Source of the DNA: Thermoplasmata archaeon
GTDB taxonomy: Archaea; Thermoplasmatota; Thermoplasmata; Thermoplasmatales; Thermoplasmataceae
NCBI GenBank assembly: GCA_021810045.1
Contig: JAJZJR010000004.1
Span: 18,351 to 82,350 of the forward strand
Direction of reading: 5' to 3'
DNA length: 64,000 nucleotides
Part shown: piece after piece, positions 43,211 to 59,989 of the stretch
Position numbering within the stretch: position 1 is the first letter of the stretch
Layout of the letters: the number at the start of each line of letters is the position of its first letter
The notes under the pieces: model-generated
The model's database searches: none
What the model saw: only the letters and a program-made list of their open reading frames with translations
Told to the model about the DNA's origin: nothing
Position numbers and translations under genes: made by a program

Positions 43211-45369
43211 AATACTCCTCCCGAAAATACCAGGAATACAGCAATCAGCTTTATTGCCGCAAATGGCAGCAGCACCCCACCGACTCCATAAAGAAGCAGA
43301 TTCTTCAGGAAAATTCTCATTGTGCTCTGCGGCCTGAACCTGGTGCCCTTCAATGCTATGGGTATCAATGCAGGAATGACTAGGGCATTGAATATTAGGG
43401 CAGAAAGCACTGCAATATGTGGAGACAGGCCAAGAATGTTCAAAGCATCCAGTGCAGAAATGCTGGCAAACATCACAGGCACTATGGCAAAGTACTTGGC
43501 AACATCATTTGTTATACTGAATGTCGTAACAGCGCCCCTGGTCATAAGAAGCTGCTTTCCAAGCATCACCACATCTATGATTTTTGAAGGGTTTGACTCA
43601 AGGTCCACCATATTGGCAGCATCCTTTGCAGCAAATGTTCCAGAGGCCATTGCTAGACCGACGTCCGCCGCGGCGAGGGCTGGGGCATCGTTTGTACCGT
43701 CTCCTATCATGGCCACAATCCTGTTCTCTGCCTGCTCATCCTTGACCTTCTGGTATTTGGTCTCGGGTTTTGCCTGGGCAACGAATTCATCAATCCCGAC
43801 CTCTCCTGCAATGCTCTTTGCTGTGAGCGGGTGATCACCTGTTATCATGACAGGCCTGATTCCCATTTTCTTGAGGCCAAGTATCTTTTCCATTATTCCC
43901 TGCTTTATCACATCCTTGAAATATATCAGCCCTAAGATATCGCCATTAATGGAAACTGCAATGGGTGTTCCCCCGGTAGATGTTATTTTTGTGACAGTTT
44001 CATCATAACCTTCAGGCACGGAGCTTGCTGACTCCCTTATGGCATCAGGAGCGCCCTTGTGAATTATTGTCTCTTCAGTCAGGGGAGTCTGGAGCTCGAA
44101 TTTCTTCCTGAACCTGTGCCTCTGGAAGAATTCCCTTCCGCCCTTGGGTAGGGTGAAGTCATCGGAGTCAACAAGGGTTATTCCGCTCCTTCTTGTGACC
44201 GCGCTGAACTCCTCATGAACCCCCTCCCTGAGGGCATCATACTCCCTAGGCACGAATTTTCTCTGGAATGCCAGTTCAACAATGCTCCTTCCCTCAGGCG
44301 TGTCATCATTCCACGACGACAGGAATGCAGCCTCTGCAAGTTCCCTTTCCGTGTGGTTGCCCAACGGAATGAATTCATGTGCGAGCCTGTTTCCTACAGT
44401 TATTGTTCCTGTCTTGTCAAGCAGTATTGTATCAGCGTCACCCGCAGTCTCTACGGCTTTCCCTGACTTGGCAATGATGCTGTTTTTCGACATCCTGGTG
44501 ATTCCAGATATGCCTATGGCCGGAAGCAGTGCGCCAATAGTGGTTGGAAGAAGGCACACATAGAGCGCAATGAGCACTGAAAGGTCGGCCCCAAGATTGA
44601 GGAGAAGGGATAGTGCAATGAGTGCAACCAGTATTATTGTGAACACACCGGTGAGCCCAAGCAACAGGATCGAAAGAGCAACCTCATTGGGCGTCTTTGG
44701 CCTCTCTGAAGATTCAACCATCTTTACTAGCTTGCTTATATAGGTCTCGTCAGGGTTCACATTCACAACTGCAACAATGGAGTCACTTATAACAGTGGCT
44801 CCTCCAATAACAGTATCACCCTTTGATTTCCTGACTCCCGCCGATTCCCCGGTGAGAAGGGATTCATCAACCATTGCAATGCCTTCTACAACTTCCGCAT
44901 CAATTGGGATCTGGTCTCCCTTCTCAATGAGTATTACATCCCCTTTCCTGAGATCAGAGGACTTTACCATTTCAATGGTTCTTCCACCGGCTTCGTTCTC
45001 CCGTATCCTCCTAGCGATCCCCTCCTTTTCCAGTTTCTTCAGGCTGGCGGCCGTTGTCCTGGATCTTGCCTCTGCAAAGGAGTCAGAAATGGTGCTGAAC
45101 CATACAGTAACAATAAGGATTGCTGCAACATAGGCATAGAAAACCCTGTCACTCTGGTGTGCCATATGTGGAAAGGCTCCAGGCGCGATAGTCATGAGCA
45201 AAACCACTATGAATGACAGTTCAACAACAAACATAACGGGATTCTTGATCAGCCTGATCGGGTTCAACCTCAGGAGAGAGTCTTTAATGACATATGGCCA
45301 GCTGACAGATTCTCCGAGACTTTCAGGTGGTACATTCTTTCCTCTATTCCGTTTCTGATTAAAGTGCAT
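43207..45369 (-). CDS. kdpB: K+-transporting P-type ATPase subunit B
   Basis: Phosphorylation site LLDKTGTIT, TGES, MITGDHPLTA and GDGTNDAPALA motifs. Confidence 0.95.
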   Translation of the reverse strand: MHFNQKRNRGKNVPPESLGESVSWPYVIKDSLLRLNPIRLIKNPVMFVVELSFIVVLLMTIAPGAFPHMAHQSDRVFYAYVAAILIVTVWFSTISDSFAEARSRTTAASLKKLEKEGIARRIRENEAGGRTIEMVKSSDLRKGDVILIEKGDQIPIDAEVVEGIAMVDESLLTGESAGVRKSKGDTVIGGATVISDSIVAVVNVNPDETYISKLVKMVESSERPKTPNEVALSILLLGLTGVFTIILVALIALSLLLNLGADLSVLIALYVCLLPTTIGALLPAIGISGITRMSKNSIIAKSGKAVETAGDADTILLDKTGTITVGNRLAHEFIPLGNHTERELAEAAFLSSWNDDTPEGRSIVELAFQRKFVPREYDALREGVHEEFSAVTRRSGITLVDSDDFTLPKGGREFFQRHRFRKKFELQTPLTEETIIHKGAPDAIRESASSVPEGYDETVTKITSTGGTPIAVSINGDILGLIYFKDVIKQGIMEKILGLKKMGIRPVMITGDHPLTAKSIAGEVGIDEFVAQAKPETKYQKVKDEQAENRIVAMIGDGTNDAPALAAADVGLAMASGTFAAKDAANMVDLESNPSKIIDVVMLGKQLLMTRGAVTTFSITNDVAKYFAIVPVMFASISALDALNILGLSPHIAVLSALIFNALVIPALIPIALKGTRFRPQSTMRIFLKNLLLYGVGGVLLPFAAIKLIAVFLVFSGGVL

Positions 45370-47020
45370 TTTTTAACCCCCCCAGATGCATGAGAATGGG
45401 CCCAATGGAAAGGAATGGGAAGAACGTGAGGACAGCAAGAATGAATATGCTTGCAATCAGTACTACAGGGAAGACCAGGTTATCGGTCCTAAGTGCAATT
45501 TCAGCGCTTCTCTTCCTGTCCTGCATTCTTCCCGCTATAGCTAGCATTATGAGTATGGGAATGAAACGGCCAGCCCACATCACTATTCCCGTGGAAACAT
45601 TGAAGAAGACGGTATTGGCTTCTGTCCCCAGGAAATCCGAACCGTTGTTTGCGGCAGATGACGTAAACTCATAGAATACCTGGGTGAATCCCACAGGTCC
45701 GTTTCCGAATCCAAGCGCATGGACAGCGCCTGTTGCATAGGCCAAAGCTGTGGGGATCAGTATTATTATGGGGTGCGACAGGAAGCCCAGAACGGCAAGC
45801 TTAACATCTTTTGCGTTTATTTTCGCTCCCAGATATTCTGGCGTTTTTCCAGCCATGAGTCCGACGATGAATACGGTTATAATCACATACATTAGCATAT
45901 ACATGGCACCAACGCCAATCCCTCCTGGAGTGGCTTGGATAATCATTCCCATGAAAGCAGACAAGATCACTATTGGATTCATTGCCGCAAGGGAAGTGTT
46001 AACCGAGCCCGTTGTAAACGCTGTTGTTGTAACGGTCCAAAAGACTGGAGAGAAACCGCCAAACCTTGTTTCCATTCCAGCTCCGAGAGAGAAGACAGGG
46101 ACAAGTGCGATTGCCAGGTCGATAGCGTACAATCCGTAAGATGCAAGGACAATGCTTCTTCCTTCTCCCTTCTTTCCCAGCATACGCCCAAATAGGAATA
46201 TGACCGATGTAGGAAGAAGCATCATCATGCCCAGTTCAAGGTAGTTAGTCAGCGGGCTCGGATTCTGCAGGGGATAGGCCGAGTTTGCACTGAAATATCC
46301 GCCTCCATTTGTTCCCAGCTGCATTATTGACACTAGTGATGCGACTGGTCCTACCTTTATGATCTGTGCCGCTCCAGAAAGCGTTTGGACAATGCTGTAT
46401 CCGGAAAGGGATTGGGGGATGCCAAAGGCTATGAGAATTACGGCCGATATTAAGGATAATGGAATGAGCACTCTTGTGATACTTTTCACAAGATCGACAT
46501 AGAAATTGCCGAGTTTTGCCCCATCTTTTTTCTTCCCCGAAAAACCCCTGAAAATGGCAACGGCCACAGCAAGCCCTGTAGCAGCTGAAGTGAATTGAAG
46601 GAATTGTATACCAACCATCTGGCTGAGGTAAGAAAGAGATGAACCTCCTCCGTAGTGCTGGAGGTTTGTATTTGAGGAGATGGACATGGCGGTGTTTAGT
46701 GCCAGTGACCAGCTCAAATCTGGAAATTTCATTGGATTAAGTGGAAGGAATCCCTGGAAGAACAGGACCAGAAATGAAATAACAGCAGTCATTATACTGA
46801 AGCTGAAAAGTGCAAGGAAATATTCTTTCCAGTCCATCTCCTTGTTTCTGTCAATCCCAATTATGCGGTAAATAAAGCTTTCAACGGGATTCAGGATCCA
46901 GTCAAGAAATGTCTTCTCGTTTTCATAAACTTTTTTCAAATATTTGGAAAGTCCCCATGCAAGGCCGATAATTATGGTCCAAACCAGAGCAATTATAAGG
47001 AGATATTCTGCCCCGATCAT
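45359..47020 (-). CDS. kdpA: K+-transporting ATPase subunit A
   Basis: 553 aa polytopic protein with selectivity-filter-like repeats (NTNLQHY, TNGGGYF, TTTAFTTGSVN, ANNGS). Lies upstream of kdpB with an 11-nt overlap. Confidence 0.92.
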   Translation of the reverse strand: MIGAEYLLIIALVWTIIIGLAWGLSKYLKKVYENEKTFLDWILNPVESFIYRIIGIDRNKEMDWKEYFLALFSFSIMTAVISFLVLFFQGFLPLNPMKFPDLSWSLALNTAMSISSNTNLQHYGGGSSLSYLSQMVGIQFLQFTSAATGLAVAVAIFRGFSGKKKDGAKLGNFYVDLVKSITRVLIPLSLISAVILIAFGIPQSLSGYSIVQTLSGAAQIIKVGPVASLVSIMQLGTNGGGYFSANSAYPLQNPSPLTNYLELGMMMLLPTSVIFLFGRMLGKKGEGRSIVLASYGLYAIDLAIALVPVFSLGAGMETRFGGFSPVFWTVTTTAFTTGSVNTSLAAMNPIVILSAFMGMIIQATPGGIGVGAMYMLMYVIITVFIVGLMAGKTPEYLGAKINAKDVKLAVLGFLSHPIIILIPTALAYATGAVHALGFGNGPVGFTQVFYEFTSSAANNGSDFLGTEANTVFFNVSTGIVMWAGRFIPILIMLAIAGRMQDRKRSAEIALRTDNLVFPVVLIASIFILAVLTFFPFLSIGPILMHLGGLKNAL

Positions 47021-47232: not shown

Positions 47233-47547
47233 TTACCGTTTTCTGTTTTCCAGTGAAACGGGATTGGCTCTAGGCCCTTTTGCAGCGCTCAGAACTATTG
47301 AGCTGACTACACTTTTGACACCGGGAATCTTCATAATTTTATTCTTCAGTGTATCCCGGAATTCTTCTATACTTTTGGAACTAACAACAGTGGCTATATC
47401 AAATTCTCCTGTCACTTCGTAAGCTTCTTCGACTGAGTCGAGCAGACGGAGTTCACCGATTACCTCTTCTACTTTGGTGGTGTCCACAAAAATATCGACT
47501 ATTGCCGTGACCTGCTTTTCGTTTTCAAACTCGTTTCCGACAGTCAT
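47233..47547 (-). CDS. stand-alone Lrp/AsnC ligand-binding (RAM) domain protein
   Basis: 104 aa. VTAIVDIFVD...VEEAYEVTGEFDIATVVSSKSIEEFRDTLKNKIMKIPGVKSV matches the AsnC_trans_reg beta-alpha-beta-beta-alpha-beta pattern. There is no HTH domain. Confidence 0.7.
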   Translation of the reverse strand: MTVGNEFENEKQVTAIVDIFVDTTKVEEVIGELRLLDSVEEAYEVTGEFDIATVVSSKSIEEFRDTLKNKIMKIPGVKSVVSSIVLSAAKGPRANPVSLENRKR

Positions 47548-47897: not shown

Positions 47898-48572
47898 GTG
47901 AAGAAGGAAGAATTCATGGATTATCTATCTTCCAATGAGATCAAGGTATTCAACATCCATGATGCTGCTAAAATATTCGGAAAACCTGAAAAATACGTCT
48001 CTATGAGGCTTACTTCGATGCCCAAGATAAAAAGAGCAACAAGAGGGGTTTACTATATTTATGATGCCGACGTGAGTGAAATTGCCACAAAGATCGTAGT
48101 TCCTTCATACATAAGCCTCATTTCTGCTTTCGCACTCCACAATGTCACTACACAGATGCCTCTTGAAATTCATGTCATAGCTCCGGTTCAGCATCGAACA
48201 CTCGAAGTGGAAGGCTATAAAATCAGGTTCATAAAGTTCACGCAAGAAAGAATTTTTGGCTATTCCAGGATCAATGGCAGCATGGTCGCCATTCTGGAAA
48301 AGGCTATTGTTGATTCGCTTTACCTGAATCTGTACACAAATGAGGCTATGGAAGTAGTAATGGACAACATTTCTCTTCTTGACAAAGCGAAACTAATAGA
48401 TTATGGGATACGGATGAGGTCCAAGGCCACCATAAGTCGACTCGGCTATCTTATGGAAATGGCAGGATACGATGCAGGTAGGCTGGAAGAATTGCGATCG
48501 GAGAGGTATGTGAGGTTTAGTGATACAGGGACTTCCAAAAACATGAAGTGGAGGGTAATCTATGCTGAATAG
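47898..48572 (+). CDS. abiEi: AbiEi-like antitoxin / transcriptional regulator
   Basis: N-terminal wHTH-like segment plus a C-terminal domain. The stop overlaps the start of an AbiEii nucleotidyltransferase gene by 11 nt. Start is GTG 47898 or ATG 47916. Confidence 0.7.
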   Translation: MKKEEFMDYLSSNEIKVFNIHDAAKIFGKPEKYVSMRLTSMPKIKRATRGVYYIYDADVSEIATKIVVPSYISLISAFALHNVTTQMPLEIHVIAPVQHRTLEVEGYKIRFIKFTQERIFGYSRINGSMVAILEKAIVDSLYLNLYTNEAMEVVMDNISLLDKAKLIDYGIRMRSKATISRLGYLMEMAGYDAGRLEELRSERYVRFSDTGTSKNMKWRVIYAE

Positions 48573-49302
48573 GGAGGAACTTATCCAGGCACCAATTGAC
48601 TTCAACATGTACCAGAAAGAGAAGGATTATCTTCAGCACATCGTCCTTTCCAGAGTTTTCTCCAGGACAAGTTCAGAGCTGACATTCAAGGGTGGTACCG
48701 CCATTCAAAAGTGCTTAGGGCTGAACAGGTTCTCTGAGGATCTCGACTTCACCGCCTCTGAAAATTTTAGCAGCGAGAAACTTGAAAGAAGTCTGGAAGA
48801 AATGGGGAGGTTCTACCCATGTTCTGTGTCGAAGGTTGAAAATAATACCTCTCTCAGCTACAAGTTGAAGATAGAGGGGCCTTTGTTTCACGGTCCACTC
48901 TCACTACAAACCATACGAATTGATATAAGCTTGAGGGAAGAGATTCTGCTTACCCCGATAAATCGCATAGTCACCCCACTCTACATTGATCTCCAACCGT
49001 ACATGGTCGTATTCATGGATCCAAGAGAGATTATGTCTGAAAAGATTAGAGCCCTGATGACACGAGCTAAGGCGAGGGACTTGTACGATGTATATTACCT
49101 GTGTCAGAAAAATGTGGCGTTTGATCTGCATCTGGCATCCAGGAAACTTGAATTCTACTCGTTGGAATTTAACAGGGATATTTTGTTGGAAAGGGCGAAC
49201 AGATTAGAATTCCAATGGGAAAAAGAAATTCCTAGTCTGGTAAGGAATGTCCCCAATTTCGATCTTGTTATTTCAACGCTGAGCGAGTTTATCAAGACGT
49301 GA
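48562..49302 (+). CDS. abiEii: AbiEii/AbiGii-family nucleotidyltransferase toxin (DUF1814)
   Basis: LTFKGGTAIQKCLGLNRFSEDLDF is the hallmark GG..L....RFSEDLDF motif. SEKIRALMTRAKARDLYD is the C-terminal motif. Confidence 0.85.
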   Translation: MLNREELIQAPIDFNMYQKEKDYLQHIVLSRVFSRTSSELTFKGGTAIQKCLGLNRFSEDLDFTASENFSSEKLERSLEEMGRFYPCSVSKVENNTSLSYKLKIEGPLFHGPLSLQTIRIDISLREEILLTPINRIVTPLYIDLQPYMVVFMDPREIMSEKIRALMTRAKARDLYDVYYLCQKNVAFDLHLASRKLEFYSLEFNRDILLERANRLEFQWEKEIPSLVRNVPNFDLVISTLSEFIKT

Positions 49303-49549: not shown

Positions 49550-49688
49550 AAATCTACATGATTCATTTGCCTAAAAACAATTTCTTATTCTGTCAGGACA
49601 TCAGATAAATCGCTCGAACATTTATATTTCAAGGATGTGAAAAAATGACGGAATTGGGCACAAAGCATGAATCCGGACATAGAACAGA

Positions 49689-49761
49689 TGGGGCTGCCCG
49701 GATTTGGACCGGAGTCTCAGGCTCCCAAAGCCCGTAGGATACCAAGCTACCCCACAGCCCC
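49689..49761 (-). tRNA. tRNA-Pro (anticodon UGG)
   Basis: The reverse complement is GGGGCTGTGGGGTAGCTTGGTATCCTACGGGCTTTGGGAGCCTGAGACTCCGGTCCAAATCCGGGCAGCCCCA. It has a 7-bp acceptor stem, an anticodon arm CGGGC-TTTGGGA-GCCTG and a T-arm TCCGG-TCCAAAT-CCGGG. The exact junctions of the D-arm and variable region were not fully resolved by hand. Confidence 0.8.
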
Positions 49762-49815
49762 ATTGGGAATTAGTAAAGTGCAAGCTCATTAAAAAATTAA
49801 CGCAAACATGTGCAG

Positions 49816-50253: not shown

Positions 50254-50532
50254 GTCATGTGTACCGCAAACCAAGAGAAAAGATTGTTCTTAGAAACAAA
50301 AAAATAGTGTCTGATAATTTACAGGTGCCACAATGATGAATTCAGCCTAGTCTGAAAAAGTGATGATCGACGGGCAGACTGAGTGGTTTTCTTATTTTTG
50401 TATGTGTCAGGATACTGGCTGTTCTGAAGACGATTAGAAATGAAATCAATAAATATAAGATATTTATTCAGGACTATCAACTGCGGAATGGCGTTTCCGC
50501 GTTAAATAAAACCGCCAGCGCGGGTCTGGCTA

Positions 50533-51507
50533 ATGACGCCTGGCAAGCGCATGGTGGTTAACATAGACAACATAACGTTAGTTGAAACGCTACTACAGTA
50601 TTTCTTCATTGTAGGGCTATCTCCGCTCTTTGCTGGAATATTCAGCAAAGTAAAGAGCATGGTGGAATCGAAGAAAGGGCCAAGCATATTACAGCCCTAT
50701 TATGATCTGGCAAAACTCCTGAAAAAAGAGACACTGAGACCGAAAGGCTCGGGAATTGTTTTCATTTACGCACCCTACGTAATCTTCGGGATTTATTCCC
50801 TGATTTCACTGATCATTCCGGCACTCATTCCTGATCCTATTTATTTTACGGCCTCTACAGATTTCCTCGGGGGTGCCATAATGCTTCTGCTTGCTGCTTT
50901 CATAAAAATTGCGGCAGCGTTCGGGAGCAACAGCAATTATTCTGCCCTCGGTGTCTCCAGGATGCTGTCATTCAATTTCCTGGCTGAGGGAACCTTAATC
51001 ACGGTTTTCTTTGCGGTTTCCCTGATCACTTCCACGAACAACCCTTATACAACAAATCATTTTCTAGCTGCAAACCCGCTGCAGAACATATCTGTTGTAC
51101 ACATTTTCTCAACACTGGCATTCTTCATGCTTTTCCTATATGAAACAGGGAAGGTACCGGTAGAAAGCGAAGGCCTGATGGAATTTGGAATGATAGATGC
51201 AGCTACAAATTATGAGTACAGCGGAAAACTGCTGGCCATAAGCAAGTGGAATGGATACATCAAGCAGTTTCTGCTGGGTTCCATTCTACTCAATGTTTTC
51301 CTGGTACCATGGTGGCTCAATCCAACATTTCCGTGGGTTTTCCTTAACATACCCGTGATGTTTGCAAAATGGCTTTTACTCATAGGAATAGTACTTGTCG
51401 TCGAGACAACACTGGCAAAACTCAGGCTGTTCAGGGTTCTGGATTATCTTGCAACTGCCTTCGCTTTCTCCATACTGTTTCTCATATTCACTGAGGTGAT
51501 GCTGTGA
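50533..51507 (+). CDS. NuoH/HycD/HyfC-like membrane subunit of a group-4-hydrogenase/complex-I-like module
   Basis: KGPSILQPYYDLAKLLKKE and ESEGLMEFGMIDAATNYEYSGKLLA correspond to conserved HycD/NuoH motifs. Confidence 0.8.
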   Translation: MTPGKRMVVNIDNITLVETLLQYFFIVGLSPLFAGIFSKVKSMVESKKGPSILQPYYDLAKLLKKETLRPKGSGIVFIYAPYVIFGIYSLISLIIPALIPDPIYFTASTDFLGGAIMLLLAAFIKIAAAFGSNSNYSALGVSRMLSFNFLAEGTLITVFFAVSLITSTNNPYTTNHFLAANPLQNISVVHIFSTLAFFMLFLYETGKVPVESEGLMEFGMIDAATNYEYSGKLLAISKWNGYIKQFLLGSILLNVFLVPWWLNPTFPWVFLNIPVMFAKWLLLIGIVLVVETTLAKLRLFRVLDYLATAFAFSILFLIFTEVML

Positions 51508-52151
51508 TACTTACTGCAGAAGACCTTCTTATCCCGATTTCAAGTCTGATTCTCATAACTGCATTCTACATGCAGGGACAGGAATTCATCAGGCCAATGA
51601 TTCGCGGTCAGTTTGTACAGTCCATTCTCCTGGCAGTGGTGTCAGTTATAATGTGGTACCTGACGCATGACATTGATTTCATTGTACTTGCTGTCCTGAT
51701 AGTTGTTCTTAGGGGTTTCCTCATTACATACTTCCTGGAGAAAGGTATCAGGAAGGATCAGGTACACCTCCATGAAAAGCATGTGAGTGTTGCATTTCCT
51801 TTCCTTATCAGCCTTGTCTTTGTTCTGACAGCTGTCCTGATCGTTTATTCAGTGGTTTTTTCAAGCATAAGGATAGAATCCATCACCGGGAACCAGGGGA
51901 TTCTTGTATTCCCACTGGCACTGTTCTTCCAGGGGCTTTTCCTTATTGCTTCAAGGAGAACAACCTATGCACAGATAATGGGATACATAGAGGAAGAGAA
52001 CGCAATCGTTCTCTTTGCCGTATTCCTTCTCCCAATACCGCTGCTTATTGAGGCCAGTGTTTTTCTTGACGTCCTGGCACTGGTTGTTATCTCATCGGTT
52101 GTGGTGTTGGAGAAATTCACTCATGAAAGAGTGGAGGAGTTGAAAGGATGA
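51504..52151 (+). CDS. HyfE-like small membrane subunit
   Basis: 215 aa polytopic protein. Its position and size match hydrogenase-4 component E. ATGA-type overlaps occur on both sides. Confidence 0.6.
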   Translation: MILTAEDLLIPISSLILITAFYMQGQEFIRPMIRGQFVQSILLAVVSVIMWYLTHDIDFIVLAVLIVVLRGFLITYFLEKGIRKDQVHLHEKHVSVAFPFLISLVFVLTAVLIVYSVVFSSIRIESITGNQGILVFPLALFFQGLFLIASRRTTYAQIMGYIEEENAIVLFAVFLLPIPLLIEASVFLDVLALVVISSVVVLEKFTHERVEELKG

Positions 52152-53494
52152 ATTCAGTTTTCTTATTGCTTATAATAACACTTATCTTCCCGGTAGTTTC
52201 TTATCTGGGGTATCTGTCAAGAATCCCAAGGCTTGACAGTGCAATTTCACTGGCCAACGTTGCATTAGCACTGTATCTGTATGAATTCATACCATATGTT
52301 GGGACATTTTATGTGGATTTCACAACGTGGGTATTCATATTGATGGTTACTTCAATACATCTCCTTTCACAGGTTTATGCAAGGAGTTACTTCCAGAATC
52401 ATAAGATTGGCATAGGGGAGAATCTGTTTTACCTGCTGATGGGACTGTTTACAACATCGATGCTCTTCTCTCTGGAGATTAACAATCTCGGTCTCATGTG
52501 GGTAGGTATAGAGGCTACCACAATATCCTCGGCACTTCTCCTGATGGCAGAGAAAAGTGAAACTTCAGCAGAAGCGACATGGAGATACATTGTTATTGTT
52601 TCAGCAGGTGTAACATTTGCATTCATCTCAATTATCCTCATTTATTATTCATTGGGAACCCTCCAGATTTCATCCATCCTGGGCATGAAAATCGTTCCCT
52701 CTCTTACCCTGAACGTGGCGGTCGCAATAGCCCTTATTGGATTTGGCACGAAAGTTGGTGTTTTCCCTGTGCACACATGGCTCCCTGACGCACACAGCGA
52801 AGCTCCGTCACCAATAAGTGCCATGTTTTCCGGGGTTCTCCTGCCAACCGCCTTATACGTTCTGTACAGGATTTACCAGATCGATCCTCTCAGGGATATA
52901 TTTGTCTGGGCAGGGGTCATATCGGTCATTGCAGCATCCCTGTTCCTAGGATACCAGACACGATACAAGAGAATGTTTGCATATTCAACAATGGAGAACA
53001 TGAACCTGGCACTGATCGGCCTGGCTGTAGGAGGGCCTTATGGACTCATTGGTGCACTCCTGCTGCTTCTTTCCCACAGTTTCGGGAAGGCTGGGGCTTT
53101 CTACTCGTCAGGAAGCATCCTCCGTTATACGGGAAACAAGAAAATCGAAGGAGTCCACGGCCTCTGGAAATCCATGCCGAAAACATCCGGTGCGTTGCTC
53201 ATGTCATCCTTTGCCGTTACAGGAACACCTCCATTCGGCACATTCTTCGGGGAATTCCTCATATTCTATGCACTGTTCTCAATACATTATTACGCACAGC
53301 TTGTTATTCTGCTGTTCTTCATAATGGCGGCGTTCATTTCCGTCAATTACAACGTTACAAAGATGGTCTTTTCAGGGGAAGGTGAAAAGAACGGAAACGA
53401 GGATTCTGTCATGTCAGGAATCGCGGTCCTGTCATCAGTGATCCCACTTCTCATTGGTATAATATATGTGGTGGTGACAACAGTTGCATTATAA
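52148..53494 (+). CDS. NuoN/HyfF-like Mrp-antiporter-type membrane subunit
   Basis: Contains VFPVHTWLPDAHSEAPSPISA, the signature of NuoL/M/N-type proton-pumping subunits. Confidence 0.8.
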   Translation: MNSVFLLLIITLIFPVVSYLGYLSRIPRLDSAISLANVALALYLYEFIPYVGTFYVDFTTWVFILMVTSIHLLSQVYARSYFQNHKIGIGENLFYLLMGLFTTSMLFSLEINNLGLMWVGIEATTISSALLLMAEKSETSAEATWRYIVIVSAGVTFAFISIILIYYSLGTLQISSILGMKIVPSLTLNVAVAIALIGFGTKVGVFPVHTWLPDAHSEAPSPISAMFSGVLLPTALYVLYRIYQIDPLRDIFVWAGVISVIAASLFLGYQTRYKRMFAYSTMENMNLALIGLAVGGPYGLIGALLLLLSHSFGKAGAFYSSGSILRYTGNKKIEGVHGLWKSMPKTSGALLMSSFAVTGTPPFGTFFGEFLIFYALFSIHYYAQLVILLFFIMAAFISVNYNVTKMVFSGEGEKNGNEDSVMSGIAVLSSVIPLLIGIIYVVVTTVAL

Positions 53495-54653
53495 ATTTGG
53501 TGAACCGGCAGGAAGGTACATTGGGCCCGGGGGAAACTATCATGTGTATTCCAGCACTATTTCTGATGTTCCTCCGGAAGGTTTCGAGGAATTGCCTGTG
53601 CACAAAATGGCCCCTGGAGAATTTAATTTCCAGTACGGTCCTTCCACGGGCGGCCTTGTTGAATCAGCAGGTCTGCAGTTTATCACGCCTGGAGAGATGA
53701 TCAATTCAGTACAGGTGGATCCGACCTACAAGACAAGAAAACTGAAAATGAAAGGCCTGGACATTGAAAGGGCAATTCTGACGGTTGAGAGGATAAACGG
53801 ATTCCACGCCTCAAGCAATACTATTGCCTTCATTCTCGCTGTTGAAGAGGCATTGGGCATGGAACCCGACGAGGAAGTGCAGAAGGCAAGGATACTCCAG
53901 CTTGAGCTCGAAAGGATAAGGAGTAACTTCGAGGTACTGAAAAGAATGGGCGAACCGGCTGGATTCGGGGTTCCTGTTAACCAGATCGGTTTTCTCAGGG
54001 AAAGGGTTTCGCGGATCATATCAAAGGCTGCAGGTCACAGGTTCTTCTTTGGTGTGAATTCACCGGGTTCAGCTCTGATATCAAATTCCGGCCTCAACGA
54101 GAAACTCTCAGAAATCAGAAAGGAATTTGACAGGATATTTTCAGGACTCCTTCAGTCAAAGATTTTCCTGAACAGGCTTCAGAACAGCTGTATCACAAAA
54201 GGGAAGTTCCTCACAGGTCCTGCTGCAAGAGCTGCAGGCCTAAGATACGATGCAAGGGAAGACTCAGATTCCCTCCCATATGATGAAACGCCTTTCGTTC
54301 CCGTCGTACATGAGGACGGGGACATATTCAGCAGAATGATTGTGAGGGGTGAAGAGATCTTCAATTCTTTTGATATAATCTCTTCCCTGGGAACGGTCAG
54401 GGAGACTCCAGGAATAAAGGTGGAGAAAGGAACCGGAGAAGGTTCTGCCAGAGTGGAAAGTCCTCAGGGCGATATTTTCTATTATGTAAAGGTCAACAAT
54501 GGAACGCTGGAGGATGTCTGGTACGTTACTCCAGGTACACTAAATGTAAGGGCATTCATGGAATCAATGAAAGGAAACCTGTTTCCGGATTTCCATTTCA
54601 ACTGGGAGAGTTTTGGCATCTGGATATCAGAACTGGGGGTGGAAATACAATGA
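53484..54653 (+). CDS. NuoD/[NiFe]-hydrogenase large-subunit-like protein lacking all metal-ligand cysteines
   Basis: ERINGFHASSN occupies the place of the ERxCGxCxxxH motif. LELERIRSNFEVL aligns with the E.eRi.sHl helix. The C-terminus has no DPCxxC. The 389 aa contain only one Cys (NSCITKG). Confidence 0.7.
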   Translation: MHYKFGEPAGRYIGPGGNYHVYSSTISDVPPEGFEELPVHKMAPGEFNFQYGPSTGGLVESAGLQFITPGEMINSVQVDPTYKTRKLKMKGLDIERAILTVERINGFHASSNTIAFILAVEEALGMEPDEEVQKARILQLELERIRSNFEVLKRMGEPAGFGVPVNQIGFLRERVSRIISKAAGHRFFFGVNSPGSALISNSGLNEKLSEIRKEFDRIFSGLLQSKIFLNRLQNSCITKGKFLTGPAARAAGLRYDAREDSDSLPYDETPFVPVVHEDGDIFSRMIVRGEEIFNSFDIISSLGTVRETPGIKVEKGTGEGSARVESPQGDIFYYVKVNNGTLEDVWYVTPGTLNVRAFMESMKGNLFPDFHFNWESFGIWISELGVEIQ

Positions 54654-55273
54654 GTAACTTCTGGTTTGGCGAAGGCCTCAGAAAAGGAAGGAAAACCGAG
54701 AGGTTTCCACATGCTCCGCCGGAAGAGCCGCCGTTGTGGCCATCTGTCCTGGAAGGGAGTACAGATACATTCTGCCCTACGGATGCAATAAAGGATGGAA
54801 AATGGGATTCAGGGAAATGTATATCCTGCAGGCTCTGCATGCCTGAATTCAGGCCAACAGGAAAACAGGACACATTCCTCATAAAGAAGACCGAGCCTGC
54901 GCTGAAAAAGTCATTTTACCTTTACAAGCTGGATACCGGTGCATGTGGTGCATGCAACATAGAGCTCGGAACAATATTTGATCCTCAGTACGATGCAAAC
55001 AGGCTCAATATTTTCATAACAAGCTCACCAAGGCATGCAGATGCAATCGTTGTCATGGGCATCCAGACAGAAGGCATGAAGGAAGCACTTAAGAACGCAT
55101 ATGAGGCAATGCCTGAACCAAAGTTGATTATTTCACTGGGAACCTGTGCCATATCAGGTGGGATCCTTGGGGATTCACCCATGAGCAGGGATGAATACCA
55201 CATTGAAATCGCAGGCTGTCCACCATCGCCATATACGATACTTGAGGCCATAGCAAAGGCCAGGGGTGAGTAA
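54650..55273 (+). CDS. NuoB/HycG-like small subunit fused to an N-terminal half-ferredoxin motif
   Basis: The NuoB core is GACGACNIEL...SSPRHADAIVVMG...GTCAISGGI...AGCPPSP, giving four Cys for one 4Fe-4S. The N-terminal CPTDAI...CISCRLC adds a C-P plus CxxCxxC set. Confidence 0.75.
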   Translation: MSNFWFGEGLRKGRKTERFPHAPPEEPPLWPSVLEGSTDTFCPTDAIKDGKWDSGKCISCRLCMPEFRPTGKQDTFLIKKTEPALKKSFYLYKLDTGACGACNIELGTIFDPQYDANRLNIFITSSPRHADAIVVMGIQTEGMKEALKNAYEAMPEPKLIISLGTCAISGGILGDSPMSRDEYHIEIAGCPPSPYTILEAIAKARGE

Positions 55274-57025
55274 ATGTTTACATACCTTGCAATAGCAATA
55301 CTTGGAATATCTGCCTTGGCGGGAGTATTCTGGAGGCCCGGTGCATATGCGGGCACAATAATCGGATCCGCATACTTCATTCTTTCCGGCTTCAACCCGG
55401 CTGACCAGATGTCATATTTTGTACTCATAGCCTCACTTGTGTGGATCATTGTCTCACTTTATTCCATGTCATACGACAGGAAATACGGAAAGTGGCTCGC
55501 ACCATCTCTGGCTCTTATGATTATGGGCATGATGATAATCCTGCAGTCTACAAATTATCTGCTGCTCATAACGGGCTGGGAAATAATGTCTGTACCTGCA
55601 TACCTGATCGTTGGGCTGAACAGGAGGGAGAGTTCACCTGCCTTCACCTTCATGATGTTCAGTGAGTTCAGTACCATCCTCATAATTGCCGGATCAGTTT
55701 ACGCTTTCTTTGTCACCGGGACACTCAGTTTCTCCTATGTGTCTTCATACGGACCTCTGTTGCTCATTTCACTGGGTGCAATAATAAAAATGGGGATGAC
55801 ACCGTTCATGATCAGTGAGTGGCTGCCCATCGCCCATGGAAATGCACCTGCGAACGCATCTGCGGTTCTTAGTGCAACAATGACTCTCATGGGTGTTTAC
55901 GTTATCATGAAAATGATACTCCAGAGCCCTGACAATATGGGTGTGGGATATCTGTTCCTCGCAATAGGATCAGTTTCCATTCTCTTCTCATCCATATATG
56001 CTTACATATCCGAGAACATGAAGATGCTTGCTGGATTCAGTACAATCGAAAACAATGCGGCCATTTTGTCGGCAATGGGTCTCTATCTGGTGGCCTCTAC
56101 ATCTGTACTAAGGGAGTTCATTTTCATTACAATCATCATCTTTGCACTTGCCCATTCAATTTCCAAGACAGGACTTTTCCTCTCAATAGGGAATTCTCCG
56201 GGGGAATTTTTTGGACAGAGCGACCATCCCACCTCTTACACTCAGAGGGTTGGGACCATGCTTACGACAATGTCTCTATCAGGTCTGTTTCCAACACTTG
56301 GCGGCCTGGCTACATGGATGCTTCTTGAATCCTTTTTCATGGAAGCATATTCTGGTGGAGCAACAGGAATAACTGCCATAGTGATAGGTTCCCTCATTGC
56401 AATGGGCGAAGGGATGGCAATGGGTTCAATGATGAAGATCCTTGCCTTCGGAAACATATTCCGCAGGAAACTTGAAACAAAACAGGAACCCAATCACATC
56501 ATAATATCAGGGGTAGGTCTTCTGCTCATCTTCCTTTTTGGAATTTCAGTACTCATCGTGTCAGGCACTTTTCTTTCAGGCATACCGAGCATACTGATAT
56601 TCAATGGATACATGATAACATCAAGATTCGGACCTGCCGATTTTGGCCTTATCTCCCCTGATTATATCCTGATTCTCATAACTGTGTTCTCACTGGTGGC
56701 TTATGCAGTGTTCAGGAAACCAAGACTCAGGGAAGTTCCTGTATGGAACGGAGGTGCCGTTGAGGTTGATTCATACACTTCATTTGCCTTTTCCAACAAT
56801 ATCAGGTTAATGCTGAAGCGGCTGCTGAGAACAAAAACAGGCTCATTGGGGAGTTCTGTGACTGTAATTGATGTTTTCTGGTTACTAATGACTGACATAG
56901 GAAAGGGCTACAAGGCCATGAGCAAGTTCATCACCCTCAGGATCATGAACAGCTCAATCGGCTGGTACATGATCTACATGATTGCAGCCTTCATGGTGAT
57001 AATGGTGATCGCAGTAAAGATGTGA
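55274..57025 (+). CDS. NuoL/HyfB-like Mrp-antiporter-type membrane subunit
   Basis: 583 aa polytopic protein. The MTPFMISEWLPIAHGNAPANASAVLSA region parallels the NuoL/M/N signature. Confidence 0.75.
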   Translation: MFTYLAIAILGISALAGVFWRPGAYAGTIIGSAYFILSGFNPADQMSYFVLIASLVWIIVSLYSMSYDRKYGKWLAPSLALMIMGMMIILQSTNYLLLITGWEIMSVPAYLIVGLNRRESSPAFTFMMFSEFSTILIIAGSVYAFFVTGTLSFSYVSSYGPLLLISLGAIIKMGMTPFMISEWLPIAHGNAPANASAVLSATMTLMGVYVIMKMILQSPDNMGVGYLFLAIGSVSILFSSIYAYISENMKMLAGFSTIENNAAILSAMGLYLVASTSVLREFIFITIIIFALAHSISKTGLFLSIGNSPGEFFGQSDHPTSYTQRVGTMLTTMSLSGLFPTLGGLATWMLLESFFMEAYSGGATGITAIVIGSLIAMGEGMAMGSMMKILAFGNIFRRKLETKQEPNHIIISGVGLLLIFLFGISVLIVSGTFLSGIPSILIFNGYMITSRFGPADFGLISPDYILILITVFSLVAYAVFRKPRLREVPVWNGGAVEVDSYTSFAFSNNIRLMLKRLLRTKTGSLGSSVTVIDVFWLLMTDIGKGYKAMSKFITLRIMNSSIGWYMIYMIAAFMVIMVIAVKM

Positions 57026-57153: not shown

Positions 57154-57876
57154 TTGGACAGACGTAAGTCGATTGCAGTAGTTATTTCTGTACTTTTTCT
57201 CACAATACTGGCAGGCTCAGTTGCAGTGGAATACAACAACGGGAAGGACATCAGCCATTTCCACCTTGACACATACTATTTCAATCCCATAGTGAGTGCC
57301 ACGTATTTCTCAAAACAGGATTACCAGAACTTCACTTCCTTTTATACTCCAGATATAAAATCGCTTGAAGGCAACTACTCAGAGAAATCAGTTAATTTCA
57401 GCTTTGGAGAATATACAATTCTCGTGACCCCGAACCTTCAGCCCATACCCGTGGGCCCCATAAACCTCCATAATTTTTCATCAGCCAATCTCTCCTCTGT
57501 ATCTGATCCTTTGGGATACATCGGCCCCGATTTTGGCATAGCAATGGTGAAAGCCACAGGGCAGTCACCTGGCTTTCTGGGTTTCACGCCAATCGATGCC
57601 AAAGTACTGGCACCCAATGGCTCAAATTACGTTTTCAACCTGAGAGGGGAAAGTTACCGGTTAATTGATAAAATCTACGGATATCCAATCAACATCGGCC
57701 CATACTACAATGTGGGAACAGGTGGCATAAGGCCTACCAACTATTCCATGAAACTTATGCCTGGCCAGTACACGCTTCAGGTCACGGTTTCGCTGTATCA
57801 TTTCCAGAGCATTGGATATACACACCTCACGGATCTGAGCTTTACGTTACCGTACTACAATTTCATTGAAAAATAA
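57154..57876 (+). CDS. hypothetical exported/anchored protein rich in N-glycosylation sequons
   Basis: N-terminal signal/anchor helix (IAVVISVLFLTILAGSVAV). Seven or more N-x-S/T sequons (NFT, NYS, NFS x2, NLS, NGS, NYS). TTG start. Confidence 0.5.
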   Translation: MDRRKSIAVVISVLFLTILAGSVAVEYNNGKDISHFHLDTYYFNPIVSATYFSKQDYQNFTSFYTPDIKSLEGNYSEKSVNFSFGEYTILVTPNLQPIPVGPINLHNFSSANLSSVSDPLGYIGPDFGIAMVKATGQSPGFLGFTPIDAKVLAPNGSNYVFNLRGESYRLIDKIYGYPINIGPYYNVGTGGIRPTNYSMKLMPGQYTLQVTVSLYHFQSIGYTHLTDLSFTLPYYNFIEK

Positions 57877-57888: not shown

Positions 57889-58788
57889 TCATCTTATTCT
57901 TTTGAGTTCGAAGGAACCAAGTGTAAGATCGTTTCCGTTATGAACAACCTCAATCCAGTCCCTGGATTGTGCCTCCTTCATTCCCCTCACCCTGAGATAT
58001 TCGGCAGATGATTCCGTCCTGAATTCTACGGAGCCGTCCATGAAGTAATTCATGTTCTCATAGAGACTTCTCTGAAAAATACCGTCTTCTATGAGGTAAA
58101 GGGTTGTGGACCCTTCCATTTTTCTCCTCTGGGAGAAATGCTGCAGTGCCTTTGGAAACAGTTTATCATCAGATGACTGGGTGATCCAGGCTGTAAGTGA
58201 GAAAAACACCATCCGGTACTTCCCCATGCTGGAGAGCATCATGGAGCAGTTCTGATCCATTGCCTTGAGAAAATTGCTGATGTTGGAAACATTGTCAAGA
58301 ACTATGGCATTGCGGTCATTGTTATCCATCTGGATACTCCGGGAGTAGGCGTCCACGAATTTCAGGTAACCGCTGTCTTCGTAGGAATCAGCAGAAATAC
58401 CCATTGCATAAAGATCGGATTTGATCTCTGAAATAGGTTTGTCCATGGACACAATAACCACTGGATAGGATTCCTTCAGGGATGATACAATAAATCTGTT
58501 GGCAAGAGTAAATTTGGAGCTGTATGGCGGGCCGCTCAGAAGGATGTTGGAGGAAGAGGGATAACCTCCATGCAGGAGATCGTCAAGCCTTGCAAAACCG
58601 GTTGAGATCCTTTGGTTTTCATTATCAACATTGCTGGAACCAACAGGATCAGGCGATAACTCCCTTATGGAGCCATCTATCTGTTCAATGAGGCTCCTTG
58701 TTTCATTGAGTTTCTCCTGGAGCTTCCTTCGCTGATCCATGAGATCCTGAAGCTTTCCATCTGAAGATTCCTGCGGAAATTCTGTCAT
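57889..58788 (-). CDS. KaiC/RadA-like ATPase-fold protein with degenerate Walker A
   Basis: ISTGFARLDDLLHGGYPSSSNILLSGPPYSSKFTL parallels KaiC-family ...G...LD.lLgGG.p.gs..lv.G.pGtGKT, but the glycines of the P-loop are lost. I trimmed the start to ATG 58788, which lies 1 nt after the upstream gene's stop. Confidence 0.6.
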   Translation of the reverse strand: MTEFPQESSDGKLQDLMDQRRKLQEKLNETRSLIEQIDGSIRELSPDPVGSSNVDNENQRISTGFARLDDLLHGGYPSSSNILLSGPPYSSKFTLANRFIVSSLKESYPVVIVSMDKPISEIKSDLYAMGISADSYEDSGYLKFVDAYSRSIQMDNNDRNAIVLDNVSNISNFLKAMDQNCSMMLSSMGKYRMVFFSLTAWITQSSDDKLFPKALQHFSQRRKMEGSTTLYLIEDGIFQRSLYENMNYFMDGSVEFRTESSAEYLRVRGMKEAQSRDWIEVVHNGNDLTLGSFELKRIR

Positions 58789-58789
58789 A

Positions 58790-59989
58790 TCATCTTCCGT
58801 CTGGAGCCCTGTAAGTTCCTGAAACCACCCATGGAGGTTCCTTAGGATCGAAGGGTTCCATGCCCTCAACTGCATTGGTGCTTACAATCTTTTCGTCTAC
58901 CTCAACACCTATGCCTGGTTTTCCGGATAGGGTAAATCTGCCATTTTCCAGCTTGTAACCTGACTTCACAAGATTTCGCTTCCAGTCAGGCCAGAATGCC
59001 TCAAAGCTCTCCTGTATGAGGAAATTTGGAAGTGTCTTGTCAACATTCAGTGTAGCGGCCGTCTGGATCGGTCCAAAAGCATTGTGGAATGCAACAGGCA
59101 CACCCATTGAGTCTGCAATTGCCCCGATCTTCTTTGCCTCCAGTATTCCAAGTGAGTTTGTGAGATCGGGCTGAATGATGTCAACCATGCCCTGAGCGAT
59201 GTATCTTGCAAAATCGGCTTTATTAAGTAGTCTCTCACCCAGTGCTATTGGGGTCCTCACATACCTCTTTACATCTGGAAGTGCAAATTCAAGTTCAGGG
59301 TGAAGAGGCTCCTCCATGAACAGCGGCTCAAACTGGTCAAGTGCAGTTCCAGCATCTATGGCGGCTTTTGTGGAAAATCTGCCATGGCACTCAATAAGCA
59401 GATCTACTCTGTCGCCAAATTCCTCTCTTAGGGAACCTACGATATCAACCGCATTTTTGAGGCCCTCTTTTGAAAGTTTGTCATAATTATTGCCGAATGG
59501 ATCAAATTTCATGGCTGTAAAACCTTTTGAAACGACTTCCTTTGCCTTTCTGACAAAATCCTCAGCAGTGACACAATCTGAGTACCAGCCATTTGCGTAT
59601 GCCCGCAGGTCCTGGTTGAATTCACCACCAAGCAATCTGTATACTGGTTCACCAACAGATTTTCCAATGAGGTCCCAGCTGGCAATCTCAAAGGCACTCA
59701 ATGCTGCAGTTGATTCCATTGATCTTGAAAGATAGAATGAGTTTTTGTAAAATTCCCTTATATTCTTCTCTACATTGAAGAAATCAGCATCCTGGAAGAC
59801 TCTCTTTACCTCCTCCATCTCTTCCTTTACGGGTAATGTCATAAGGGTTGTAGGGGCCTCTCCATAGCCTATAAGGCCATCTTCTGTAGTAAGTCTCACC
59901 AGAAGGATAGTGGAACTCCAGGGGCTTGATATCTCCTTGCCTTTCTCGCCAAGTTCCAGAACATCTATTTTCTTTATTTTCGACGACAT
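58790..59989 (-). CDS. enolase-superfamily D-gluconate/galactonate dehydratase
   Basis: NIREFYKNSFYLSRSMESTAALSAFEIASWDLIGKSVGEPVYRLLGG closely parallels archaeal gluconate dehydratase of the non-phosphorylative Entner-Doudoroff pathway, as I recall the Sulfolobus enzyme. Confidence 0.8.
   Translation of the reverse strand: MSSKIKKIDVLELGEKGKEISSPWSSTILLVRLTTEDGLIGYGEAPTTLMTLPVKEEMEEVKRVFQDADFFNVEKNIREFYKNSFYLSRSMESTAALSAFEIASWDLIGKSVGEPVYRLLGGEFNQDLRAYANGWYSDCVTAEDFVRKAKEVVSKGFTAMKFDPFGNNYDKLSKEGLKNAVDIVGSLREEFGDRVDLLIECHGRFSTKAAIDAGTALDQFEPLFMEEPLHPELEFALPDVKRYVRTPIALGERLLNKADFARYIAQGMVDIIQPDLTNSLGILEAKKIGAIADSMGVPVAFHNAFGPIQTAATLNVDKTLPNFLIQESFEAFWPDWKRNLVKSGYKLENGRFTLSGKPGIGVEVDEKIVSTNAVEGMEPFDPKEPPWVVSGTYRAPDGR

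Follow-up and report, generated by a model that had tools for sequence, protein, structure and literature searches.

A 64,000-nucleotide stretch of the genome of a Thermoplasmata archaeon (GenBank assembly GCA_021810045.1, contig JAJZJR010000004.1, positions 18,351 to 82,350), referred to here as the window, contains an operon of six plus-strand genes whose products resemble subunits of group 4 [NiFe] hydrogenases and of complex I. The original prediction, made from the letters of this DNA, had described six overlapping genes of this kind at 50533-57025. The open reading frames (ORFs) fall at exactly these positions, and the Pfam and NCBIfam matches and the comparison with E. coli Hyf proteins agree with it. 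EhrH, EhrE, EhrF, EhrL, EhrS and EhrB are working labels of this analysis and not published names; Ehr stands for energy-converting-hydrogenase-related. The genes and their products are as follows.

50533 to 51507, plus strand: EhrH, NuoH/HyfC/HycD-like membrane subunit, 324 residues (PF00146, NADHdh, E = 1e-28)
51504 to 52151, plus strand: EhrE, HyfE-like small membrane subunit, 215 residues, about 7 predicted helices (NF008556, hydrogenase-4 subunit E, a weak match, E = 3e-8)
52148 to 53494, plus strand: EhrF, HyfF/NuoN-M-like antiporter-type subunit, 448 residues (PF00361, E = 7e-50)
53484 to 54653, plus strand: EhrL, homologue of NuoD and the [NiFe] large subunit, 389 residues, TTG start (PF00346, Complex1_49kDa, E = 4e-20)
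54650 to 55273, plus strand: EhrS, HyfH/NuoI-like remnant fused to a NuoB/HycG-like small subunit, 207 residues (PF01058, Oxidored_q6, E = 8e-22)
55274 to 57025, plus strand: EhrB, HyfB/NuoL-like antiporter-type subunit, 583 residues (PF00361, Proton_antipo_M)

The genes are translationally coupled. Successive pairs overlap by 4, 4, 11 and 4 nucleotides, and the final pair, encoding EhrS and EhrB, abuts with 0 overlap. When the products were compared with the Hyf and Nuo proteins of E. coli, the best match of each one was its Hyf counterpart (HyfC, HyfE, HyfF, HyfG, HyfI and HyfB, in operon order). EhrF scored 581 bits against NF005042, where the cutoff is 437, and EhrB scored 660 bits against NF005046, where it is 460. 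The order H-E-F-L-S-B recurs in all 58 loci that were collected (57 from a scan of species-representative genomes and 3 from an exact protein look-up, 2 of them duplicates), and the operon is intact wherever the contigs permit. The locus encodes a self-contained six-subunit complex of the Ehr type, which originates from a Hyf-type group 4 hydrogenase and has the gene order hyfC-E-F-G-(H remnant fused to)I-B.

The large subunit EhrL retains a series of motifs that belong to the scaffold of its superfamily (PGE, ELERIRS, GHRFFF, GPAARA, DAR, GDxFSR and ESPxGD). Its closest solved structure is MbhL (6cfw_L, E = 5e-18), and HyfG (5e-12) and MbsL (3e-11) match more weakly. The segments equivalent to the L1 and L2 motifs of hydrogenases are located as follows.

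53787 to 53819, plus strand: L1-equivalent motif ERINGFHASSN, EhrL residues 102-112, placed by alignments to MbhL, HyfG and NuoD
54609 to 54632, plus strand: L2-equivalent motif SFGIWISE, EhrL residues 376-383, opposite SLDPCYSCTDR of HyfG

The first of these lies opposite ERMCGICSFSH in MbhL and DRVCGICGFAH in HyfG. At the four positions of the NiFe cysteines EhrL has Asn-105 and His-108 (first and second Cys) and Trp-380 and Glu-383 (third and fourth Cys, from DPCxxC). The sole cysteine of the protein is Cys-236, so that the claim of a large subunit with a single Cys and neither cysteine motif is borne out. Position 105 is an asparagine throughout the close family, and position 108 is histidine, phenylalanine or tyrosine. 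Residues Trp-374, Gly-378, Trp-380 and Glu-383 are invariant in the family alignment. The resulting signature, N-[H/F/Y]-W-E, is kept throughout the roughly 20 50%-identity clusters nearest to EhrL, and none of 112 aligned family members has the cysteine motifs for NiFe. Because both the signature and the absence of the motifs hold across the family, the alignment indicates that the cysteines are not hidden by a frameshift. When the comparison is widened to the 151 nearest clusters, the four NiFe cysteines are all absent from 110 and all present in 25. The "canopy" arginine of hydrogenases, found in the motif EAPRGE, is replaced by glutamine in EhrL (ESPQGD) and by glutamine, serine, alanine or glycine in the family. 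Judged from its sequence, EhrL cannot bind a NiFe centre.

The ligands of the complex I quinone site have likewise disappeared. Alignment with NuoD, HyfG and MbhL shows that EhrL lacks both the NiFe motifs and the quinone-site histidine and tyrosine of NuoD. The histidine belongs to the β1-β2 loop, where GPSTGGLVES of EhrL lies opposite GPNHPSAHGAFR of NuoD. The tyrosine is next to the L1 position, where ERINGF lies opposite DRIEYL. The β1-β2 loop itself is conserved in the family, with the pattern GPSTGGLxES.

A genuine [NiFe] hydrogenase or formate hydrogenlyase is what the names in the databases imply. NCBIfam NF005042 and NF005046 label EhrF and EhrB "hydrogenase 4 subunit F" and "hydrogenase 4 subunit B," and records often name EhrL "formate hydrogenlyase" (also "subunit 5") or "Ni,Fe-hydrogenase III large subunit." In a study of hot springs, syntenous "fhl" clusters of Thermoplasmata metagenome-assembled genomes (MAGs) were counted as bidirectional NiFe hydrogenase (PMC10439147). 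Four of the scan loci (L016, L019, L058 and L062) look like members of that MAG series, a link made by isolate names only. This explanation is excluded at the sequence level, and we give it practically no chance. All four NiFe cysteines and the canopy arginine are replaced family-wide. Neither tblastn with E. coli proteins, including HypA-F and HycI, nor Pfam annotation revealed hyp, hycI, fdh or further nuo genes in the 64-kb window, in line with the earlier claim that hydrogenase maturation and protease genes are missing nearby. At no locus does the operon adjoin a gene for formate dehydrogenase or HycB/HyfA. The hydrogenase-type names have apparently led at least one metagenomic study to count such clusters as H2 metabolism (PMC10439147), a function that the sequence rules out.

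The small subunit EhrS contains two predicted iron-sulfur sites.

54944 to 55225, plus strand: ligands of the proximal (N2-equivalent) [4Fe-4S] cluster, C99-x2-C102, C166 and C190 (GCPP), invariant in 91 sequences
54773 to 54838, plus strand: extra [4Fe-4S] motif C42-P...C57-x2-C60-x2-C63 in the N-terminal domain, four cysteines at least 90% conserved

The NuoB-like subunit had been said to keep its four cluster cysteines, and the invariance of the proximal ligands confirms this. The motif is the hydrogenase-type CxxC (Cys-99-Gly-Ala-Cys-102) and not the tandem CC of complex I. The closest solved structures to EhrS are HycG (7z0s_G) and MbhJ. The extra domain consists of the first ~85 residues. 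Aligned with hhalign, this region matches E. coli HyfH with 96.3% probability (E = 1.5e-9) and NuoI with 95.8% probability (E = 6.8e-9). Of the two ferredoxin motifs, it retains the "CP" cysteine from motif 1 and CxxCxxC from motif 2, the combination that ligates N6b, the cluster adjoining N2, in Thermus thermophilus complex I. Distant homologues of EhrS, which are 29-36% identical over most of the query, have a fuller ferredoxin domain with two motifs and 7 cysteines fused to the small subunit. The AlphaFold2 model of EhrS has a mean predicted local distance difference test score (pLDDT) of 89, and the N-terminal domain is modelled confidently too. The Foldseek matches of this model are dominated by the NuoB-like domain, with nothing separate on the N-terminal part, and the identity of the N-terminal domain therefore rests on the hhalign result. 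The N terminus of EhrS is a truncated HyfH/NuoI ferredoxin remnant whose four cysteines are predicted to bind one extra [4Fe-4S] cluster. In the hyf operon, hyfH is placed between hyfG and hyfI, so that a truncation together with a gene fusion accounts for the arrangement of EhrS. Nearly all Thermoplasmata have kept this second cluster. The whole N-terminal segment from Cys-42 to Cys-63 is missing, with the proximal motif kept, from the small subunits of a peat Methanobacterium (L054:9116-9667) and of a Micrarchaeota MAG (L053:9119-9679).

The original prediction had listed NuoI among the Nuo subunits without an equivalent. The list stands for NuoA, NuoC and NuoJ, which, like NuoK, gave no matches in the 64-kb window, but it is only partly right for NuoI, because a one-cluster remnant of HyfH/NuoI with four cysteines is present in EhrS. 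The NuoH-, NuoD-, NuoB-, NuoL- and NuoN-type domains could in principle belong to a rearranged canonical complex I with the missing subunits encoded beyond the window. This too is excluded at the sequence level and has, in our estimate, a negligible probability. Each subunit is closer to its E. coli Hyf counterpart than to its Nuo counterpart, and the quinone His/Tyr pair and the NuoB tandem CC are absent. The six-gene set is complete, with unrelated flanks, in 58 of 58 loci. In Thermoplasmatales from acid mine drainage, as in Thermoplasma acidophilum, an archaeal NuoABCDHIJKLMN operon exists separately (Yelton et al. 2013, PMC3750248), which sets aside the objection that the present locus might be the only nuo-type locus of the organism. 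Judged by sequence, the complex is neither a canonical complex I nor a hydrogenase, as had been proposed.

Four membrane subunits complete the operon. The closest solved structures to EhrH are HycD (7z0s_D, E = 5e-23) and MbhM. EhrH keeps the set of Lys, Asp, Glu and Arg residues of NuoH and HycD, including an acidic loop between transmembrane helices TM5 and TM6 with Glu-204, Glu-217 and Glu-228, the last in YEYSG. EhrF is closest to MbsH (6u8y_H, E = 1e-29) and MbhH among solved structures, and four of its residues are invariant in 56 sequences: Glu-122 (the TM5 Glu), Lys-202 (TM7 Lys), His-310 (TM11 His) and Glu-369 (TM12 Glu). The position of the TM8 lysine is a proline, and HyfF has an asparagine there. 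EhrB is closest to ND5/NuoL and MbhH. Its Glu-103, Lys-172 and His-294 are invariant, the TM12 position is threonine, valine or isoleucine, and the TM8 position is leucine. The antiporter-like charge set is complete in EhrF and partial in EhrB. Hydropathy and helical moment indicate that the C terminus of EhrB has a stretch of about 75 residues without transmembrane helices and with amphipathic segments (residues ~484-559), followed by a last transmembrane helix (560-583). The stretch is consistent with a lateral helix of the NuoL type.

The C-terminal half of the small membrane subunit EhrE matches E. coli HyfE (hhalign E = 1e-4), with 0 of 1000 shuffles reaching the observed score, and Arg-70, Glu-91, Arg-151, Glu-165 and Asp-189 are invariant, with Glu-163 at 98%. 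By eye the same half resembles NuoK (RR, ExxxNA and EAS motifs). An equivalence with NuoK or NuoJ is unsupported: the hhalign E values are 0.43 for NuoK and 0.13 for NuoJ, and 407 of 1000 shuffles score at or above the observed value in the NuoK/NuoJ test. A profile search of the Protein Data Bank with EhrE gave no fold match. Its AlphaFold2 model (pLDDT 75) had no significant Foldseek match; mouse ND6 appeared at rank 47 with a probability of 0.28. For all six subunits, none of the matches to solved structures is close, the best being HycD, HycG, MbhL and MbsH with E values of 1e-18 to 1e-29.

These features place the complex in the Ehr class, as the original prediction had suggested. The large subunit is homologous to those of group 4 hydrogenases and to NuoD, its NiFe motifs are gone, the proximal cysteines of the small subunit are kept, and NuoH- and antiporter-like subunits are encoded in the same cluster. 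The Ehr class is established and its function is unknown (PMC6349859, PMC10432482, PMC10284858). Later papers credit it to Coppi (2005) and to Marreiros et al. (2013), and members are on record from Geobacter, Sulfobacillus, Nitrospira, ammonia-oxidising archaea and Margulisbacteria. A six-gene Ehr cluster has been described in acidophilic Sulfobacillus (PMC4378227). For Thermoplasmatales from acid mine drainage, "putative group 4 hydrogenases" without the two Ni-binding motifs have already been published (Yelton et al. 2013, PMC3750248), so that the complex adds one more member to a class that is known but uncharacterised and has already been reported in this order.

The operon shares with other Ehr clusters the set of NuoH-, HyfE-, NuoD-, NuoB- and antiporter-like subunits, the large subunit without the NiFe CxxC motifs, and the retained cluster of the small subunit. 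It differs from them in several respects. EhrL of the Thermoplasmatales type has about 390 residues and lacks the NuoC-like N-terminal fusion of many Ehr relatives of about 500 residues. The subfamily also has the N-[H/F/Y]-W-E signature and a C-terminal motif, FTDFHFNWESFGIWISE, of its own. The ferredoxin domain has shrunk to a single cluster and forms part of EhrS, whereas in more distant relatives it is the fuller 7-Cys version that is fused.

Compared with E. coli hydrogenase 4, the genes C-E-F-G-(H)-I are colinear with hyf, and a HyfE-type subunit is present. The six-gene set lacks HyfA, HyfD and HyfJ, HyfH is represented by the one-cluster domain fused to the HyfI homologue, and the hyfB homologue stands at the end of the operon, whereas hyfB is at the start in E. 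coli. EhrL, unlike HyfG, has neither NiFe ligands nor a NuoC-like N-terminal domain. For five of the six subunits, the nearest solved structures come from the formate hydrogenlyase complex FHL-1 (7z0s), the Pyrococcus furiosus hydrogenase Mbh (6cfw) and the sulfane reductase MBS (6u8y). The four NiFe cysteines are all present in Mbh and FHL-1 (verified for FHL-1 through HycE), in contrast to none of four in the six-gene complex. FHL-1 has one antiporter-like subunit and no HyfE-type subunit, whereas two antiporter-like subunits and EhrE are encoded here. Mbh and MBS carry additional Mrp-derived subunits, which the six-gene complex lacks; the composition of about 13 subunits found in MBS and Mbx, with MrpE/F/G/B-like proteins, is not seen at any locus, where six genes have unrelated flanks. 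Nor does the operon correspond to an Mrp antiporter (MrpA-G), since it has NuoD- and NuoB-like genes inside it and no MrpE, MrpF or MrpG genes. With complex I it shares NuoH-, NuoD- and NuoB-like subunits, the NuoI remnant, NuoL/N-like modules, the Glu/Lys pairs of the antiporter-like subunits and the acidic NuoH loop. Complex I has three antiporter-like subunits and the six-gene complex two, and the two systems differ in the proximal-cluster motif and the quinone-site residues as described above.

The 57 scan loci come nearly all from Thermoplasmata, and of the 58 loci examined most belong to Thermoplasmatales. The rest belong to Micrarchaeota, to Methanobacterium/Methanobacteriaceae and to one "Thermoprotei" MAG. 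Further hosts found by other searches are Picrophilus, Caldiplasma and Sysuiplasma and, from the Sulfolobales, Stygiolobus, Acidianus and a Sulfolobus sp. The named hosts are all acidophiles: Thermoplasma, Picrophilus, Ferroplasma, Acidiplasma, Cuniculiplasma, Oxyplasma, Caldiplasma, Sysuiplasma, Sulfolobus, Acidianus, Stygiolobus, Micrarchaeota of the ARMAN type and a peat Methanobacterium. EhrL of the window is 52% identical to the "formate hydrogenlyase subunit 3" of Thermoplasma volcanium and 50% identical to the homologue in Oxyplasma meridianum. A compact, strictly conserved six-subunit version of the complex thus occurs in cultivable acidophilic archaea such as Thermoplasma, Picrophilus and Acidianus/Sulfolobus. 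In two Methanobacteriaceae loci (L057 and L059) several genes look split or truncated, which reflects either decay or assembly error.

Clustering of 341 flanking genes from the 58 loci revealed no flanking family that is linked to the operon across lineages. A donor module (NuoEFG, FdhF or HycB/HyfA) or a formate dehydrogenase gene is adjacent in no examined locus. Neighbours were also considered as clues to a donor or acceptor and rejected, as only isolated, non-recurrent cases were found. A flavodoxin gene lies upstream in one Methanobacterium locus. In T. volcanium a gene for a blue-copper protein of 190 residues (plastocyanin/sulfocyanin-like, L004:6152-6724) is located immediately upstream on the same strand, and other loci are without it. 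A KaiC-like ATPase is encoded on the minus strand of the window at 57889-58875 and lies downstream in convergent orientation at 10 related loci, and in one Micrarchaeota locus a KaiC-like gene on the same strand overlaps the end of ehrB (L060:10895-11671, plus strand). This adjacency is probably coincidental, because KaiC-like genes are common in archaea.

Taken together, the architecture suggests a ferredoxin-fed, ion-translocating oxidoreductase, not a hydrogenase, whose acceptor would most likely be menaquinone. This is the reading that we favour, tentatively and at slightly less than an even chance. The complex would assemble like Hyf or Mbh. A soluble low-potential donor, most likely ferredoxin reduced by 2-oxoacid:ferredoxin oxidoreductases, would dock on the peripheral EhrS/EhrL part. 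Electrons would pass along a wire of two clusters, from the N-terminal HyfH/NuoI-type [4Fe-4S] cluster to the proximal N2-type [4Fe-4S] cluster, and arrive at a metal-free pocket at the interface of EhrL, EhrS and EhrH. This pocket would be lined by Asn-105, the aromatic residue at position 108, Trp-374, Trp-380 and Glu-383, together with the conserved GPSTGGLxES loop, and a membrane acceptor, most likely menaquinone, would be reduced there. The reaction would be coupled through the acidic TM5-6 loop of EhrH and through EhrE to the two antiporter-like subunits, and EhrF and EhrB together would move H+ (or Na+) across the membrane.

The absence of an adjacent donor module fits direct use of ferredoxin. 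Ech, Mbh and NDH-1 use ferredoxin directly, and Mbh and MBS oxidise it without a donor module. The cysteines of both iron-sulfur sites and the ion-path residues of EhrH, EhrF and EhrB are under strong conservation. The hosts live organotrophically and have several 2-oxoacid:acceptor oxidoreductases, and menaquinone-7 is the main quinone of Oxyplasma (PMC11349054). A narrower proposal, which we consider doubtful, is that the Cys-free pocket formed by Asn-105, the aromatic residue 108, Trp-374, Trp-380 and Glu-383, fed by the two-cluster wire, is a new, non-canonical acceptor site, plausibly for a naphthoquinone. If this narrower proposal is correct, an acidophile-associated archaeal subfamily would represent a minimal ferredoxin:menaquinone proton pump that was derived from a hydrogenase independently of complex I, and it would supply an unexplained route for reduced ferredoxin into the respiratory chain of aerobic archaea.

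Conservation within the operon was determined from the 34 loci in which all six genes are full-length, as identity to the proteins of the window. The mean values are 67% for EhrH, 63% for EhrF, 58% for EhrS, 57% for EhrE, 54% for EhrB and 50% for EhrL. EhrH and EhrF are the most conserved subunits at 32 of the 34 loci, and EhrL is the least conserved at 23 of them.

Several observations weigh against a ferredoxin:menaquinone reaction. The low conservation of EhrL is odd for a catalytic subunit. EhrL lacks the NuoD quinone histidine and tyrosine, so any quinone site in this subunit would be non-canonical. The N-terminal iron-sulfur domain is missing in the Methanobacterium and Micrarchaeota loci mentioned above, L054 and L053, and Methanobacterium, which is one of the hosts, is not known to synthesise quinones. 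EhrB lacks the charged residues of TM12 and TM8. The 11-subunit Nuo complex of relatives could do the same job (PMC3750248). Our literature search found no expression or proteomic data for the Ehr subfamily of the Thermoplasmatales type, and no biochemical evidence for any of its members.

The same pattern of conservation would suit a cation or proton transporter that is independent of redox reactions or only gated by them, similar to Mrp and serving pH or ion homeostasis in acidophiles. EhrL and EhrS would then be relics with a structural or regulatory part, and the iron-sulfur clusters would be retained for folding or sensing. Besides the ranking of the subunits, the loss of all known catalytic residues of hydrogenases and of the complex I quinone site, the loss of the extra iron-sulfur domain in some lineages and the acidophily of all named hosts point in this direction. 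Up-regulation of hyfBCEF-type genes at low pH has been reported for an acid-tolerant Nitrospira (PMC13109103), but this concerns a different subfamily. Against a transporter stand the proximal cysteines, invariant in 91 sequences, and the second cluster in nearly all Thermoplasmata. Conservation extends to the two loops that in complex I couple redox reactions to the membrane, namely β1-β2 in EhrL and TM5-6 in EhrH. Mrp antiporters need no NuoB- or NuoD-like subunits, and the presence of two extra soluble subunits in 57 or more species needs a reason. We regard this explanation as rather improbable, and it keeps that much weight because of the doubts about quinone ligands, EhrL conservation, iron-sulfur loss and Methanobacterium.

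The acceptor at the former NiFe pocket might also be something other than a quinone. A ferredoxin-dependent, ion-translocating reductase of, for example, sulfane sulfur or polysulfide, as in Pyrococcus MBS, or of some other acceptor, soluble or associated with the membrane, would suit the occurrence in Methanobacterium. Some Thermoplasmatales are capable of anaerobic respiration, and it has been suggested that archaea of acid mine drainage reduce S0 or sulfur ions (PMC3750248). The closest solved structure to EhrF is, moreover, MbsH of the sulfane reductase, with the E value of 1e-29 given above. However, EhrL is nearer to MbhL than to MbsL (5e-18 and 3e-11), and the operon has only six genes, with no MrpEFG-like or other MBS-specific subunits. 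The cluster is also present in Oxyplasma, described as aerobic, and in Picrophilus, an obligate aerobe. A non-quinone acceptor of this type appears unlikely.

A fourth arrangement keeps the architecture of the ferredoxin:menaquinone proposal, together with the evidence for it, and reverses the direction. The inward proton gradient of an acidophile would drive electrons from menaquinol to ferredoxin, as when Ech or Rnf runs backwards. The restriction to acidophiles agrees with this. On the other hand, the hosts are mostly peptidolytic or organotrophic aerobes that reduce ferredoxin without an obvious need for more, and no locus has a linked ferredoxin-consuming pathway. We consider reverse operation improbable, to about the same degree as a non-quinone acceptor, and retain the forward transfer from ferredoxin to menaquinone as the preferred reading. 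The two-cluster wire and the lack of a partner module make the complex a clean candidate for biochemical work and for electron cryomicroscopy. Its value lies in a compact, partner-free architecture in cultivable hosts and in the warning that it gives about misleading hydrogenase annotations.

The intergenic region upstream of the operon contains one further feature.

50275 to 50532, plus strand: upstream intergenic region with a putative archaeal promoter, an A/T-rich box at about 50449-50470, from reading of the letters alone

A scan for bacterial-type promoters and terminators is uninformative for an archaeal host. The true start of EhrH may be the ATG at 50551 instead of position 50533, since homologues have 313-321 residues and conservation does not extend to the first ~15. 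An ORF of 240 residues (57154-57876, plus strand) follows the operon immediately. Its product begins with a hydrophobic anchor, contains many N-x-S/T sequons and belongs to no Pfam family. The contigs of the same species (L001-L003) share this ORF, and it is apparently absent at this position in L009, a relative with about 70% EhrL identity, where a KaiC-like gene starts at most about 10 nucleotides from ehrB.

The remainder of the window is ordinary chromosome, with a type I restriction-modification system, an A-type ATP synthase, a shikimate operon, kdpCBA, a toxin-antitoxin pair and an aconitase. The restriction-modification system is complete (1763-7546, minus strand, and 36-1031, plus strand), with HsdR of 994, HsdS of 419 and HsdM of 515 residues and an adjoining DUF5906 protein. 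Several ORFs beside it at 7691-12167 have no Pfam family and may form a mobile or defence island. In the ATP synthase operon (15530-25551), the catalytic subunit A of 1113 residues (17658-20999, plus strand) is interrupted in its nucleotide-binding domain by an intein (Intein_splicing, residues 246-764), which contains a LAGLIDADG homing-endonuclease domain. Thermoplasma is a known host of VMA inteins. The shikimate/chorismate operon (29736-36302, minus strand) encodes DAHP synthase, DHQ synthase, shikimate dehydrogenase, chorismate synthase, a GHMP-type shikimate kinase, EPSP synthase and dehydroquinase. It is an ordinary operon of its kind; chorismate is a precursor of menaquinone.

An ISL3-family transposase gene (41471-42691) adjoins kdpC-kdpB-kdpA (42743-47020, minus strand), and a gene for an AsnC-type regulator follows at 47233-47547. 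The kdp genes encode a potassium pump, and uptake of potassium is typical of acidophiles. The kdp operon lies 3.5 kb upstream of the Ehr operon and is not treated as linked to it, because the pairing is not conserved in other loci. Between the two, at 47898-49302 on the plus strand, are the genes for an AbiEii-type nucleotidyltransferase toxin of 246 residues and an overlapping upstream partner of 224 residues without a Pfam family. This pair is about 400 nucleotides from a tRNA-Pro(TGG) gene (49687-49762, minus strand). Locus L002, from a different sample, does not have the pair, which may therefore be a small integrated element.

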